Origin: Octopus vulgaris
Lineage: Eukaryota
Length of the DNA stretch: 64,000 nt
Direction of reading: 5' to 3'
Assembly: GCA_951406725.2 (NCBI GenBank)
Contig: OX597823.1
Coordinates: 55,428,001-55,492,000 of the forward strand
Shown: positions 2,313-59,875 of the stretch, piece after piece
How positions within the stretch are numbered: position 1 is the stretch's first letter
Layout: every line of letters begins with the position of its first letter
The notes under the pieces: generated by a model
Told to the model about the DNA's origin: nothing
Database searches by the model: none
Seen by the model: only the letters and a program-made list of their open reading frames with translations
Position numbers and translations under genes: made by a program

Positions 2313-3357
2313 AAATAAATAGTATATTTTTAATCAGTCGAACACATTTGTATAATTTTACTTAAATCCTTTAAGGGGGTAAGAAGACAGACAAAGTCTA
2401 TGTTGTTGTCACTTCAGCTTAGAAGTTTCTAAGACATCTGGAAAAAATCTGTTTGGGTCATAGCTTGTCACCGATTTTGGTTCAGTTTTAATTTATTAGT
2501 CTTGTTTATCAAATTTTTGTATATCAAATTTAAAACTAGAGAATAGTGTCTGTTAGGAAAGGGCATGAGAGAGTTGACAGAATCATAATGGATGTAATCA
2601 TAAAACTTGTCAAGATTATTTTGAAGTAGTATAAATTAACTGGCGATAATGATGAGATTGAGTAATGGAAGATCCCAAATCAAGATGTTAATTACCAGTT
2701 AAAGGAGCAAGACGCTAATAGAACCAATGATGATAATACAGAGGAAATATTATCATGGGCTACTATAGGTGATTGATTTTAGCAATATTGTTATATTGTA
2801 TAAAAATAAAATTTAGGGTTATTAAGAAAAATATTATAACCAAAAAGAGAAATTTTGAATAATTTTGAATATATACCAAAATTTTCAACAATAGAGAGAA
2901 AAAATTACATAGAATTAGTTTAATATTCATTCATATACTTAATTATTTACTTATTAGGTGGTATCTATGAAGACTGATCACTGGTATTTACTAAAGGAAT
3001 ACTGTGGTGATAGAACATACTAATTATATATCAATTATAATCTAAGAAGTATATTATAAGTTGTTAAGTTCCCGGTGCTATTATATACAATCTAATATAA
3101 ATTTTTAGGAGTACAAAATTAGGAGGTTTACTTACATAAAGGCTATTATTAAAAAAATATGATCAGAAGTGTGGAACACCATAGAAAGGAATAAATAGTT
3201 TAATCACTAAAAGCCATGATGAAGTTGGACTAACTAGGCAGGAATATTCGTAGGATAGATAGTATACTAATTCTATGTAGCACACTAACTTACTATACTA
3301 TATAGCTTATATTGTATGCAATGTACTTAAATTCTTCATGTAACTGAATATCACCTG

Positions 3358-3417
<60 letters not shown>

Positions 3418-3514
3418 CTAGAGGGTAAGTATAATTAGATACAACACTGAAATTTTAAAAGACAGTTTCCATCAATCCAGTTCAAGCACAACACCTATAA
3501 AACTCTAATTTCGA

Positions 3515-3870
3515 AAATATTTAAATGTACAGGTGACACTATGTACGCATGATACCTTAGTTCTAATCTATTGTTAATCAGGTTGCTCTTGCTCTTATGC
3601 TTAAAAATCTCATATGTTTCCGTAGAGCACAGCTCACACGCGTATCTACTAATTCTATATGGCTGTGCTATCCCTATTATTTCCCATTCAAGGCTAAACT
3701 TGATCCCGCTTCCCTTCAGTTCCTAAATCTTACTAGATAATGACTTACAATTAGCCTTATGTTTAAGTCTAAAAGAGGAAAAAGGATTATAAATAGGGTT
3801 TTTTTTTTTCATATTAATCGAACATTCAATATACATATAGTTACCAGTTATAGTTATGAACATTTTAATA
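3515..3870 (-). mobile_element. Penelope-like retroelement remnant, GIY-YIG endonuclease C-terminus
   Basis: Translation YMYIECSINMKK..SSFRLKHKANCKSLSSKI*ELK..LEWEIIGIAQPY..CELCSTETYEI matches the GIY-YIG end of the element at 9.5-9.9 kb; stops and frameshifts present. Confidence 0.8.
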
Positions 3871-3880
3871 TTTGTAAAAT

Positions 3881-3925
3881 AAACAGTCTGACGAACGAGA
3901 ACGTGAAACTCTGAATAGCTGGTTT
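3881..3925 (+). ncRNA. Minimal type I hammerhead motif in an inverted Penelope terminus
   Basis: CAGU-CUGACGA-ACG agaa CGU-GAAAC-UCUGA-AUA-GCUG. It abuts the minus-strand GIY-YIG remnant in opposite orientation. A sister copy lies at 7578-7621. Confidence 0.7.
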
Positions 3926-4175
3926 TTGCGATATTTTTGTAACGTTTTTGCAGCTTTAATAATAATAAAGCATAATACTCTACCTTCGGTATTCGAGTAC
4001 TATTCTTTTCCACCTTATTTCATATTTAAATGCTTACATTAGCGTGCTAAAATAAGAATTAATTTTATCGTGGGTTGGGGGATTTAACTACTATTTCTAG
4101 GGTGTTGGAAAACCACTCAGTGACTTTTCCCCTCGTGTATTATTTTTATACACATATTTATATATGTATATATAT

Positions 4176-7723: not shown

Positions 7724-7787
<64 letters not shown>

Positions 7788-7933
7788 CAAAGCAATTAAG
7801 ATTCAAGTAAATTCCAATGAATTTACTTGAATGTGGTACTTAACTTAGATGCACCAGAAAAACTATATGGTGTTAACCATACAGTAATGTGGGGTGATTA
7901 TAAACGAGAAAGAAGCAACAAGAATGGATTAGT

Positions 7934-8024
7934 TTTTAGTACAATTGTTTCATACAAAGACAGGCTTTATTACAAGTTGCAAAAATTGCAGCAGATAAAA
8001 GTGTCCCGTACTCATCAGCTAAAA
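7934..8024 (-). ncRNA. Minimal type I hammerhead ribozyme in Penelope terminus
   Basis: UUUUAG-CUGAUGA-GUACGGGACA...UGUCUUUGUAU-GAAAC-AAUU-GUA-CUAAAA. Intact core and palindromic loop III. Confidence 0.88.
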
Positions 8025-8140
8025 TACATATGAGTTCTCTAGACATCTTAGTGGGTGAGGTTATACTCATGAAATATTGGAGATAATTCCATTAAAGGCA
8101 GATATAGGTTGTAAACAGTTTTCCAAAGTTCCTTAATGAT

Positions 8141-8330
8141 GATGCACAGTCTTATCACAGATTTTTAAAAACTTATTAGTTTCGAAGAGAAGATGAATTA
8201 ATCCATAGTGTAGATTTAAATTTCCAGAGATATGAGGAGGAGGATGCACAGACTTATCACAGGTTTTTGAAAACTTATTAGCTTCACAGAAAAGGTGAAT
8301 TAATCCGTAGTGAAGATTTAAATTTCCAGC
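8141..8330. repeat. Imperfect tandem duplication, unit about 102 bp
   Basis: gatgcacag.cttatcacag.ttttt.aaaacttattag...gatttaaatttccag occurs at 8141 and 8243. Confidence 0.8.
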
Positions 8331-10892
8331 GGTAAGAGGAGGAATTTCATACTCACAGATGATGTATTTAACCATTATTAATCCACAATCATTTCATGCT
8401 ATATGATAAGGTAATTTGCCATATTACTGCTCTCCGTGCAAAACTGCTATGTTAAGATTTCTAAAGGCTGAAGGAATTTATTTGTGGGGCAAAGAAAATA
8501 AAATAAAAGAAAAAAGAAAAGAGACAAGGAAAAAAGAAAAAGAAAAAGGAGAAGAAGAAGAAAGAAGGAAAAGAAAAAGAAAAAGAAAAAGAAAAAAGAA
8601 AAAAGAAAGAGAAACGGGGGAGAATGATAGAAAAGAAAAAGAAAAAGAAAAAGAAAAAAAGAAAAAGGAAAAGAAAAAAAGAAAAAAGGGGAAGAGGGAG
8701 AAAAGAAAAGGCGCCTATATAGAGTATACTGCGACAACTTAGCGGGAGGGGGTTCTAAAGTGACCAAATAGAGAAGAATTTGTAGACAACTTAGTTAGCT
8801 TGAATCTTTAAGAATTCAGGAACTATGAGGAGAAAATTTTTGACCAGTAAACAGCTATTTACTATCAACCTGCCACGGATGAAAGCAGATATGAATCTAA
8901 AGAGAATTTAAAGAGATAAACAAGGTCAGGGGTAGAGGGGTCAAAATCTATCGTCAAAAGGAAATACATTAAGAGAAAAAATCTAAGTGCAACCTTAACC
9001 AGAGGTCATTTAAATTATTTATTTATTTATTCATGTTACTGTCTTAAAAATTGTTGCCGTTACTATCAATACATTAACGGACTACCAGTCAAAAGCTAGA
9101 ATTTAATTAACAAGGTGTGATGGAATTGTCTATTTTATTGAAGTTTATCATACTACTTTCAAGGGAGTTTCTTCCCTTAATTAATTTTGTAATAGAATTG
9201 TTAAGCCTTAGTAACTTAATTTATTAAAGTAGTGTTACCTAAACTAGATTAAGTTCTAAAATTAAAGATTTAAAATTAAGATTTAAGAATTAAATAAACT
9301 CTAAAAATTAAGATTTAAGAATTAAGAATTAAATAAACTTTCATTTAAGCAATGTACGAGTACTATTTTATTTCCCAATGCTCAAAATCAGGTGTAGTTA
9401 TAAAGAAAAAGATAACTATAGTGTGAGAACTCGCAGTTATCTACTTAAAAGTAATGTTATACTAGTAAAGACCCGGTTATATTTATCTACCTATCTTGTT
9501 ACGATTATTCTATACAGTTATTCACTTAAAATATTTTAGAGTCTTCAATTTAGCGTGGACACAAACTTGTCCTACTTCAATATGGTTATTTAACAAGTTT
9601 CTATTTTTTCTATGCCTTAGAATTTCATAGGTCTCCATTGAGCAGAGTTGGCAACCAACCCTGCTATTTTTATACGGTATTGCTCTCCTAACTATTTCCC
9701 AATTAAGATTATAATTCTTGTTATTATTTTTGAGTTCCCAGATTTTACTTGAAAGTGTGGTGGTCCCAGCTTTATGACGTAATCTAAAAGATGAGATGTG
9801 ATTTCTAACTCTTTTATTAAAATTTATTGTGCATTCGATGTAAAAAAAATATGTTATTCTCAGTAGATATGGTACATTTATAGATTACGTTATTTTCCCC
9901 GCAAAGACCGGGTGCCGGGCATCTTGACTTAATTCTACACTTACACGCAGGAGGAACAACTTCGGAAGTTGGATTATTCATGGGTAGATGTCTTATGTTC
10001 CTATTATTTTGATTATCATGAGTATAATTATCCTTATTATTATTATTATTTTTATAGTTGGTGCTGTTATCTAAAGCATTGTTATTATTTATTGATCCTA
10101 TTGCTCCATCTTTTAGGTCTAAAGTCCTACCATGATTATTTACATTATTAGTAATGTTACTATTATTGTTAGTATTATTATCAAACTGTATATTGCTGCT
10201 ATAGATATCACTGATATTTTCCTTCTCCGCATTTTCTCTATTAGCCTTACTTCTATTATTAACATTTTTACTTCTATTAGTATCGGTATTATTACTACTC
10301 TTATTACTGCTAATATTATTTTTAGTCGTTTTGTGGTTACTGATTCCATCCGTGTTTTGATAGTTACAATTGTTGTGTTTATTGTTGTTAGTATTGCTAT
10401 AATTGTTATTGGTATTCATGTTGTTATTATTATTTTTATTTTCATCTTTCCTGGCTAGTTTAATGTTGTTATTAATCTTAGCTATTAAAGTGGACATATT
10501 TGGGAGGGTTGAATAAGAAATTCTAACTGTTTTCTTAGAAATAATTCTATGATATCTATGAGAGATTGGGAAATTTTTTCTAGAATTACTTTGAATTTGC
10601 TCCGTATATCCGATTGAATCGCACAGTTGGAAGGAATATTCAGCCATATTATATCTTTTTTATTTTTATTTCTATTAAATTTCCTTGAATTAGAATCAGG
10701 GTTCGTAGAATTATTATTATTATTCATCTTATCAAAGTCATTGTACTTACTTTTATCTGCTGCAATTTTTGCAACTTGTAATAAAGCCTGTCTTTGTATG
10801 AAACAATTGTACTAAAAACTAATCCATTCTTGTTGCTTCTTTCTCGTTTATAATCACCCCACATTACTGTATGGTTAACACCATACAGTAGA

Positions 10893-11272
10893 GTACGAAG
10901 AATTGGATTCTTCACGACGGCAATGCAACCTGTCCCCGAGCTCTCCTCTTTCGTAAGTTTCTCGCCAAAACGAACATGGTATCGCTTCCGACCCCGCCAG
11001 ATTTATTCGCCAGATTTAGCACCAGCGGACTTCCATTTATTCCCCAAGATGAAAATGCAGCTCAAATGTCGCCGTTTTAACGCTGTTGTCGAGTTCTCGA
11101 CTCGCTTACGGTAAACGACTTTCAGGCCGGATTCCAAAAGTGGCAAGATCGTTGGAGCCGATGTATTGCTGCGCAAGGTGACTATTTCGAATGAGATGTT
11201 GTTAAAACTTAGGTAAATAGTTATTTTTTTATTAAACATAACTAATCTGGGAGCCTTTTGATACCACCTTGT
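10893..11272 (+). mobile_element. Mariner transposase 3' remnant with right terminal repeat
   Basis: WILHDGNA..FLAK...YSPDLAPADFHLFPKMK..RRF..FQKWQDRW.RCI..QGDYFE, ending ccttttgataccaccttgt. Confidence 0.9.
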
Positions 11273-17860: not shown

Positions 17861-18102
17861 ATTTAGTATATTTTTGCAAAGAGCCATGATAAAACTCCGC
17901 AATAATAAAAACGCAAATAGTACATAATAGAAATATATATATATATATATATTCAATAAAAGCAATTAAGATTCAAGTCAATTCTAATGAATTCACTTGA
18001 ATGCGGTACTTAACTTAGATGCACCAGAAAACTATATGTTGTTAACCATACAGTAATGTGGAGTGATTATAAACGAGAAAGAAGCACCAAGAATGGATTA
18101 GT

Positions 18103-18193
18103 TTTTAGTACAATTGTTTCATACAAAGACAGGCTTTATTAAAAGTTGCAAATATTGCAGCAGATAAAAGTGTCCCGTACTCATCAGCTAAAA
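18103..18193 (-). ncRNA. Minimal type I hammerhead ribozyme
   Basis: Same core and stems as 7934-8024. Confidence 0.88.
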
Positions 18194-18296
18194 CACATAT
18201 GAGTTCTCCAAACATCTTAGTGGGTGAGGCTACACTCATGAAGTATTGGAGATAATTTCATTAAAAGCACTAAGATGTTTGGAGAACTCATATGTG

Positions 18297-18387
18297 TTTT
18301 AGCTGATGAGTACGGGACACTTTTATCTGCTGCAATATTTGCAACTTTTAATAAAGCCTGTCTTTGTATGAAACAATTGTACTAAAA
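18297..18387 (+). ncRNA. Minimal type I hammerhead ribozyme
   Basis: ttttag CTGATGA gtacgggaca..tgtctttgtat GAAAC aatt GTA ctaaaa. Confidence 0.88.
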
Positions 18388-18907
18388 ACTAATCCATTCT
18401 TGTTGCTTCTTTCTCGTATATATAAATATATATACATTATTTGTAAGGCAACCTAAAAGTAAAGAATATATCCAATACTCTTTTTATCACTAATTTATCA
18501 CTATTCGGTATTAACGATGTGTGTGTATATATGTATATTAATCCTTTAGGAAATTCCTCCTAACATTAACCATATTCGGTCCCCTATCTTGCCATAAGGC
18601 CGTATTCTGATTATTTATTTAATTTTGCTCCTAATTCCTCCTTTCGTCTTGTTTGTTTCCTCTTTGTCTCTCGTTGGTCTACTAATGATCTCGTTTGGAA
18701 TCACATTTATTTATGTTTATATGTCCACTTTCTGTATTTATTTATTTATTTATTTATTGTTTATTTGTTTATTTTCTGTCAAGTTTGTGATCCCTTGTTT
18801 ATATAGAAGAGCTGGAATAGATGTATGGACAAAAATGCTCACTTTACAACCGTGTGGTATTGTGCCATTTCCCGTCGGCTTCTTACTGCTGGCGCCACCA
18901 GAAATGA

Positions 18908-20033: not shown

Positions 20034-20064
<31 letters not shown>

Positions 20065-20209
20065 ATATATATATATATATATATATTATTGAAGTAGATA
20101 AATGAATTATCTTATTACGGATAATTCAAATGCCATTTATTTCATGGGCTCCTCGTGAGCGTTTGTCGAAAAGCTTGCTCTGCATTTTGTTGGAGAATTA
20201 AGTTCCTGG

Positions 20210-20295
20210 ATTTTCCTGAAGAGAAGGCTGCAAAATGGACTCCTTATTCAATCTGAATTAGGGATTTTGCAGCCTTCGAAACATATGTAGAAAAT
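20210..20295 (+). ncRNA. Intact minimal type I hammerhead ribozyme
   Basis: AUUUUC-CUGAAGA-GAAGGCUGCAAAAU...AUUUUGCAGCCUUC-GAAAC-AUAU-GUA-GAAAAU. Perfect 6-bp stem I, perfect 14-bp stem II and palindromic loop III. It sits in a unit of about 265 bp between two (TA)n tracts. Confidence 0.92.
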
Positions 20296-20346
20296 AATAA
20301 AAAGGAATTTTGTTAAATCTTCGTTCAGCTCCATTTCTTCCTACAC

Positions 20347-20411
<65 letters not shown>

Positions 20412-20446
20412 TAATATAGTATAGTATATTTATATATACAGTAAAA

Positions 20447-45070: not shown

Positions 45071-45655
45071 GGCAGGCTGGCAGAATCGTTAGCACGCCGG
45101 GCGAAATGCGTAGCCGTATTTCGTCTGCCGTTACGTTCTGAGTTCAAATTCCGCCGAGGTCGACTTTGCCTTTCACCCTTTCGGGATCGATAAATTAAGT
45201 ACCAATTACGCACTGGGGTCGATGTAATCGACTTAATCCGTTTGCCTGTCCTTGTTTGTCCTCTCTGTGTTTAGCCCCTTGTGGGTAGTAAAGAAATAGG
45301 TATTTCGTCTGCCGCTACGTTCTGAGTTCAAATTCCGCCGAGGTCGACTTTGCCTTTCATACTTTCGGGGTCGATAAAATAAGTACCAGTTACGCACTGG
45401 GGTCGATCTAATCGACTTAATCCGTTTGTCTCTCCTTGTTTGTCCTTTCTGTGTTTAGCCCCTTGTGGGTAGTAAAGAAATAGGTATTTCTTAGTTTTAC
45501 ATTCTATGTAAAGTTTAAATTCCGGCTAGGTCGACTTTGCTTTTCATCCATTTCGGGGCCTATAAAGTAAATACCAGTTGAACACTGGGGTCGATGTAAT
45601 TGATTAGACTCCTCCCCGAAAATTTCAGGCCTTGTTCCTATATTAGAAGGATTAT
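45071..45655 (+). mobile_element. Head-to-tail trimer of family A SINE
   Basis: Units of about 185 bp restart at ggtatttc after aaagaaata (about 45299 and 45483). Confidence 0.88.
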
Positions 45656-59375: not shown

Positions 59376-59670
59376 TGTATGTATGTATGTATGTATGTAT
59401 TATATATAATTTAAACATTAATTTTCTTCTTACATTTCACATTCACTAGATATACCTTTTTCGTAGTCTATAAGGTTTTATTTAATATACATATAGTCAT
59501 ATACTTCTCATTTATTTAGTTTTTCATTAATTTATCCCTCCTCTTTCTTTAGGCTACCTCGGACGCTATATTATAGAACGTTTTTCCCAACAATATTAAT
59601 AGCGTTCAGCTATCACTATACATATCCACCATTTTTTTTTAAATGTCTTTTTGACGAGTCTCATTTCTTC

Positions 59671-59758
59671 ACTTCCCTGAAGTGAAGATTACATTGTTTT
59701 ACACCATTTTATTCCTTTGGAATAATATCAATGATATCTTCGAGACACGTGTCGAAGT
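59671..59758 (+). ncRNA. Decayed minimal hammerhead motif (related to 20210)
   Basis: ACUUCc-CUGAAGU-GAAGAU...AUCUUC-GAGAC-ACGU-GUC-GAAGU. Two core substitutions; stems and palindromic loop are retained. Confidence 0.65.
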
Positions 59759-59759
59759 A

Positions 59760-59791
59760 AAAGAATTTGAATTACACCTACGTTAAACTCC

Positions 59792-59843
<52 letters not shown>

Positions 59844-59875
59844 GGAGTTTAACGTAGGTGTAATTCAAATTCTTT
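59760..59875. repeat. Palindrome centred on (TA)n
   Basis: aaagaatttgaattacacctacgttaaactccatt-(TA)n-aatggagtttaacgtaggtgtaattcaaattcttt. Confidence 0.92.

Follow-up and report, generated by a model that had tools for sequence, protein, structure and literature searches.

In the genome of Octopus vulgaris (assembly GCA_951406725.2), a TA repeat on contig OX597823.1 is interrupted by about 265 bp that carry a hammerhead ribozyme. Is this stretch an element in its own right, and if not, where does it come from? We examined it within a window of 64,000 nt (positions 55,428,001 to 55,492,000 of the contig; coordinates below count from the first letter of the window) and across the 2.8-Gb, microsatellite-rich genome. 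The stretch is a clipped, two-armed end of a Penelope-like element (PLE) within the TA repeat, not a stand-alone element. The ribozyme itself is ordinary for the PLE class, and the value of the finding lies in the parent element.

The hammerhead and the insertion that carries it

All parts of an intact canonical type I hammerhead (stems, CUGAAGA, GAAA, AUAU loop and GUA) were found where a sequence-only reading had placed them (Table 1); besides the CUGANGA and GAAA boxes and the UH cut site there are three helices, with helix I open-ended. That reading was also right about (TA)n on both sides and about coding sequence, no frame of at least 120 codons being found across 20087-20350. The motif is not a chance match; a strict descriptor gave one match in the window vs. 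none in 200 shuffles, and the fold z-score was -4.2. With a looser descriptor three more hammerheads of another family were detected in the window, at 18303 (+), 18187 (-) and 8018 (-). None of the window's hammerheads was recognised by Rfam, in which no match reached the gathering score. The perfect 14-bp stem II noted earlier is present in this copy, but it is near-private and not the family form, since only 2 of 83 core-intact copies have 14 bp; most core-intact family-A copies have 12 bp followed by a mismatch.

Table 1. Positions of the family-A insertion, its hammerhead and related features in the window
Feature	Position	Strand	Details
(TA)n target, left	20054-20086	.	sequence
Inverted arm	20087-20132	-	last 46 nt of ~150-nt tail, ends at distal 3′ site; 44/46 identical to tail of full copy L073
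Head-to-head junction	20131-20132	.	2-nt overlap (TG); 22-mer across it found once in 2.8 Gb
Forward arm	20131-20350	+	5′-truncated family-A pseudo-LTR, ends at proximal 3′ site; 208/219 identical to L073
(TA)n target, right	20350-20438	.
Type I hammerhead, family A	20210-20295	+	all parts located in sequence; cut predicted after 20289
Stem I AUUUUC / GAAAAU	20210-20215 / 20290-20295	+	6 bp
Core box CUGAAGA	20216-20222	+
Stem II	20223-20236 / 20264-20277	+	14 bp
Core box GAAA	20278-20281	+
Helix III ACAUAUGU	20281-20288	+	loop AUAU 20283-20286
GUA	20287-20289	+	UH cut site 20288-20289
Extended stem I	20200-20207 with 20303-20310	+	constrained fold; part of the similar 3′ flank; pairs 25-28/128-131 in covariation set
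Family-C two-armed insertion	17941-18422	.	tail arm 17941-18235 (-), proximal arm 18268-18422 (+); intact hammerheads, loop AAUU
Longer family-C insertion	7771-10889	.	minus arm 7771-10751 with hammerhead at 8018, plus arm 10749-10889
Endonuclease frame pieces in family-C minus arm	9522-10659	-	with CxCX5C linker
Family-B 3′ end	59398-59796	+	5′-truncated, sister family; ends at proximal site before (TA)n
Decayed family-B hammerhead	59671-59758	+	CUGAAGU 59677-59683, GAGA 59742-59745, one stem I G lost
Inverted copy of 59760-59796	59839-59875	-	exact, 37 nt; across (TA)n, tail to tail

Searching the genome with the ~265-bp stretch gave matches most of which covered query positions 45-264, while positions 1-46 matched the opposite strand about 110 nt further on. 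The query is thus split: 20087-20132 corresponds, in inverted orientation, to the end of a longer 3′ region, and the supposed unit is therefore a composite of a 46-nt inverted piece and a 220-nt forward piece, both from the 3′ end of a ~3.65-kb PLE. The proposed search for the unit's copy number and ends gave many family copies but a single instance of the junction. The sequence-only reading had seen a stand-alone unit here; this does not hold, as the internal junction is unique in the genome and the copies extend upstream into a reverse transcriptase (RT)-endonuclease frame. A retrozyme or SINE-like, non-autonomous element spreading as a 265-bp unit would account for the non-coding sequence, the sharp ends and the intact ribozyme. 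Retrozymes reportedly derive from PLE pseudo-LTRs (accessible part of bioRxiv 10.64898/2026.07.22.740005), and the 5′ ends of 15 of 136 arms, the window's arm among them, cluster at reference positions 3275-3281. Yet the junctions of the look-alike loci L002 and L003 differ from the unique one at 20131-20132, and a repeat check of the window found no tandem array at 20087-20350. This alternative is largely refuted and we give it next to no weight.

A second hammerhead, at 59.7 kb, had been described as a covarying relative and as direct evidence that structure rather than sequence was conserved. The quoted stems and flank are present, but the core reads CUGAAGU/GAGA, so that the CUGANGA/GAAA boxes are lacking, and one stem I G is deleted; judged by its sequence, this hammerhead is probably inactive. 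The copy is a member of family B; this family encodes RT and endonuclease frames of its own, and its stem I is ACUUCC/GGAAGU. The family-B core pattern has 569 matches genome-wide. In the 30 nearest copies the core was kept in 24, and the loop was AUGU in 27, AUAU in two and ACGU in one; among the first 100 of the 569 matches, 98 read GAAAC-AUGU and one had ACGU. One older relative combines an ACGU loop with an intact core. ACGU is rare in family B. Carrying three lesions in core and stem and a loop atypical of its family, the decayed copy is not direct evidence of structural conservation. The broader claim, that pairing rather than sequence was conserved, is true between families A and B: 10 of 27 predicted pairs carried double-sided changes in a set of 11 subfamily copies, for which the predictor also drew two false core pairs. 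Two stem I pairs switch from U-A to C-G between the families, and stem II pairs switch too. Across families the loops (AUAU, AUGU, AAUU, ACGU, GAUC and GUAC) are all self-complementary, AUGU via wobble pairs. Further hammerhead families were noticed in flanking DNA (L128:236-323, L135:653-742, L159:3333-3433, L231:1246-1331 and L087:908-992), with the palindromic loops GAUC, GUAC, ACGU and AUAU. The tail-to-tail duplication at 59760-59875 is unlike the usual head-to-head pairs; either a subsequent fold-back or an error of assembly may have produced it.

In folding calculations on the 218-nt arm alone, stems I and III had a probability of 0.0 and the hammerhead fold lay 6.5 kcal/mol above the minimum; for a 117-nt piece, the open hammerhead was only 0.4 kcal/mol above it. 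Free cofolding of two copies formed the ACAUAUGU duplex (-80.4 vs. 2 × -34.8 kcal/mol), and helix III formed only as this dimer duplex. Since the arm misfolds alone, ribozyme activity may need a partner or a protein, and since two copies pair via ACAUAUGU, the models point to dimer action on tandem transcripts as the likely mode.

Private changes were as common in the core (8/756) as in the flanks (86/10206) of 63 young copies, a count from which 12 of 75 rows were dropped as misanchored. Inserted copies therefore decay neutrally, and no sign of selection on them was found among these 63. The core is intact in 83 of 95 family-A arms because the family is young. The constraint on the hammerhead acted on active master elements, and in the window copy the hammerhead is a passenger. 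Intact core and stems, together with a near-private change that completes the 14 bp of stem II, might instead speak for co-option of this copy by the host as a functional ribozyme. However, so many family arms keep the core as well, private changes are no rarer in it than in the flanks, and the window holds no same-orientation partner copy; we find co-option hardly credible.

The parent element and its missing linker

The parent was reached by walking upstream from the copies, which led to an endonuclease frame and then to the full frame of L073. This locus holds a natural uninterrupted RT and GIY-YIG frame of 904 codons (L073:3562-6276); behind it come the hammerhead, ~650 nt 3′ of the stop, and the tail. 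At several loci hammerhead and tail stand directly before the ATG, which is the pseudo-LTR arrangement of tandem copies. An exact 20-mer of the young family-A subfamily has 134 genome matches, a lower bound on copies. Contigs of three putative RNA runs cover much of the element; as they give no information on strand, on ends or on the window's copy, they were left out of the evidence.

With the L073 protein no significant family was found in Pfam and no match in a word-indexed protein search; a full profile search gave 8394 relatives. The protein model (pLDDT 80.9) has telomerase RT as its best fold match (E 2.9e-9), and YRDD stands at residue 357. For the C-terminal model the top five fold matches were GIY-YIG nucleases, though weak (best E 0.054). 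The endonuclease reads IYQC...YIG...R...H...E...N, which includes the conserved E and N as well as the invariant residues Y, Y, R, H. Family A combines a telomerase-like RT, a GIY-YIG domain in frame, a pseudo-LTR, an inverted truncated arm and a one-sided tail, and is an endonuclease-bearing PLE. Two Asn-rich inserts, at residues 493-550 and 640-758 of L073, are predicted to be disordered, and their variable poly-Asn runs keep the frame.

The marks of the Hydra clade of PLEs, in the accessible part of PMC8557442, are RW, DKT, absence of CCHH, CxxC..E..N..CxH and a CxCX5C linker. L073 has RIRWL at 39 (the K of RWK being replaced), SDKT at 125, no CCHH, CALC 864 and CTH 892 around E and N, and one Cys in the GIY-YIG core. 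The CxCX5C linker before the endonuclease is absent: all listed family A and B frames have 0-1 Cys there, vs. 4 in family C. Among 150 homologues surveyed, 51 had a recognisable endonuclease; CxCX5C was present in 45 of these and at least two Cys in 49, and the two with no Cys in the linker region are kin of the A/B lineage (93% and 56% identical). In an endonuclease tree (midpoint root, rough unsettled bootstrap, one row dropped) A and B group on a single branch (100/99) inside the linker-bearing homologues, and because of this nesting the loss looks derived, as far as these sequences go. Since the linker is absent, we filed families A and B as a Hydra-related variant and not as Hydra members, the named Hydra references being compared by eye.

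Linker-bearing family C occurs in the same genome and in the window (Table 1), and A and B could reach (TA)n by being mobilised in trans by such a relative. Against this, family A has open RT-endonuclease frames with the invariant and conserved residues given above. The A and B endonucleases are also 52% identical and share the same replacement segment in place of the linker, which suggests that selection acted on their own proteins. Trans mobilisation is quite improbable. (TA)n targeting without the CxCX5C linker is not unprecedented, as two Chlamys families are listed with this combination in the accessible text of PMC8557442.

The 3′ region of family C is ~1.5 kb long. The plus arm at 10749-10889 extends ~37 nt beyond the proximal site, after which a mariner-like piece interrupts it; in one family-C pair in the window both arms seem to pass this site. 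Fragments at 10854-11272 read like what we take to be a mariner-type transposase. The region 3415-3960 holds another PLE endonuclease remnant, on the minus strand at 3603-3854; near 3880-3930 the plus strand shows hammerhead-like core words together with a short stem II. At 45116-45600 a 184-bp unit is repeated 2.6 times, and similar short repeats recur in the flanks of many loci.

The 3′ ends of the arms and how arms may form

From 103 loci we obtained 138 distinct arms. The loci were picked by similarity searches scoring the best 40 candidates, a choice under which same-end pairs would have scored equally well. Their 3′ ends fall at two sites: 62 arms end at the proximal one, ~60 nt behind the predicted cut, 74 at the distal one, ~150 nt further on (about 215 nt from the cut), and two elsewhere. 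Among head-to-head pairs, 48 of 49 consisted of one proximal and one distal end, and the remaining pair was a nested piece. Within 20 nt of 129 of 136 ends there was (TA)4, vs. 7% of random places in the same loci; in family B (TA)n was weaker, at 17 of 30 ends. Two loci, L078 and L084, are 98% identical over 8 kb on one contig in opposite orientation, as a segmental duplication or haplotype, and were counted as two unpaired arms.

Only one of 136 5′ ends falls at the ribozyme cut site, which gives no support for self-cleavage, and we rejected the ribozyme cut as the source of the copies' 5′ ends. That a transcription start explains the clustering of 5′ ends at 3275-3281 is unproven: 134 vs. 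97 exact 20-mers were counted in testing it, only 4 of 21 fetched discordant loci end there, and all four pseudo-LTRs in front of frames begin elsewhere. The first search may favour arms starting at this point, yet of 40 arms selected by their tail, 9 start in 3275-3285. For family B, an apparent 5′ cluster at -222 was put down to a break in the alignment and dropped. In five loci (L030, L013, L159, L160 and L034), and once in family B, the 5′ ends of tail arms lie right at the proximal site (reference 3495-3507), as if the distal copy had stopped where the other primer sat. In family A the distal site is followed by a weak, bulged hairpin whose inner pairs vary, in family B by one of 6 bp; support for a hairpin after the proximal site was inconsistent.

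In 14 of 48 pairs no more than 25 nt separate the starts of the two arms (3.9 expected; 0/20000 permutations). Without the 5′ cluster, arm starts were close in 8 of 42 pairs vs. 2.2 expected (p 0.001). Such symmetric, palindrome-like junctions also fit the published self-priming model, in which the same parent would form the second arm by fold-back (accessible part of PMC3846280) and not from two target ends. The other 34 of the 48 pairs are asymmetric, however, and some tail arms, the window's included, share no sequence with the other arm; fold-back alone also leaves the pairing of one proximal with one distal end unexplained. We consider it rather unlikely as the source of the second arm.

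The window insertion is very probably a truncated two-armed family-A PLE insertion, Hydra-related and with a predicted dimer-cutting hammerhead, and it likely arose from a nick in the TA repeat and reverse transcription from two fixed sites of uncut RNA. The element's protein would nick the repeat and start reverse transcription at these sites; both target ends would prime, one per site, possibly helped by TA-rich tracts of the RNA at both sites. For the window copy, 220 nt of cDNA would have been made from the proximal site and 46 nt from the distal one, the two then being joined via the 2-nt overlap. The hammerhead sets neither end and would process tandem transcripts of active masters. In the accessible part of PMC11167929 the RT start sites are not homologous to the target, which speaks against a step of RNA-target pairing. 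A more specific scheme, which we advance tentatively, is that in a linker-less, Hydra-derived lineage landing in (TA)n, the TA-rich tracts and small hairpins of the RNA set targeting and priming, and a protein dimer primes both ends on uncut RNA at sites ~150 nt apart, one per arm.

The open-access papers searched gave no report of families A and B or of the linker loss. The novelty is modest: a Hydra-related lineage that lacks the CxCX5C linker yet sits in (TA)n, a tail of ~150 nt and a strict rule of one end to each arm. The accessible part of PMC8557442 ties the linker to (TA)n targeting; here is a natural loss of that motif beside a sister family, C, that keeps it, which makes the hypothesis directly testable. 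Being young, with open frames and a long tail, the family exposes both priming sites, and the figures 48/49 and 14/48 are sharp ones for choosing among models of PLE inverted-arm formation.

Comparison with known systems

The window insertion resembles the non-LTR retrozymes of bioRxiv 10.64898/2026.07.22.740005 (accessible part) in being non-coding, in its type I hammerhead and in its pseudo-LTR kinship, but it is neither tandem nor copied as a unit; having no tandem hammerhead units and a unique junction, it was rejected as a member of that group. PLE hammerheads as described in the accessible text of PMC4209133 are, as here, of type I, located in pseudo-LTRs, mostly in single truncated copies and in opposite-strand pairs, with a palindromic helix III and covarying families within one genome; they are weakly active there unless dimerised. 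In the motif at 20210, helix III has 2 bp and a 4-nt loop and stem I has 6 bp; stem II is longer than the 7-8 bp given in that text.

Hammerheads in Hydra-clade PLEs have already been published, one of them from an octopus: the accessible part of PMC8557442 lists Hydra-1_Obim (Octopus bimaculoides) as having a canonical hammerhead and targeting (TA)n. Family A shares with that clade a single RT and C-terminal GIY-YIG frame, RW and DKT, the lack of CCHH, CxxC/CxH flanking E and N, a canonical hammerhead close to the 3′ end, (TA)n as target and an inverted 5′-truncated arm with a tail at one end. By the same text, the clade has the CxCX5C linker, whereas families A and B are without it; its members are generally <3 kb vs. 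~3.65 kb with Asn-rich inserts in family A, and their tails measure 30-40 nt vs. ~150, about a fourfold difference. The family-A hammerhead, with its 55-nt stem II domain, is unlike that of Hydra-1_Obim in sequence.

The Adineta vaga Penelope (PMC3846280, accessible part) shares with family A a tail on one inverted pseudo-LTR and palindromic junctions, and with L073 Asn-rich inserts between RT and endonuclease. Its tail is 31 bp long and its target-site duplications are visible, whereas in family A they are hidden by (TA)n. Poseidon PAc, in the accessible text of PMC11167929, has two internal RT starts in vitro and inserts without need for ribozyme cutting; as in family A, the two start sites bound the tail and the targets are AT-rich. 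In PAc the sites adjoin each other within the ORF, whereas in family A ~150 nt separate them, they lie upstream of the ATG, and each arm has strictly one.
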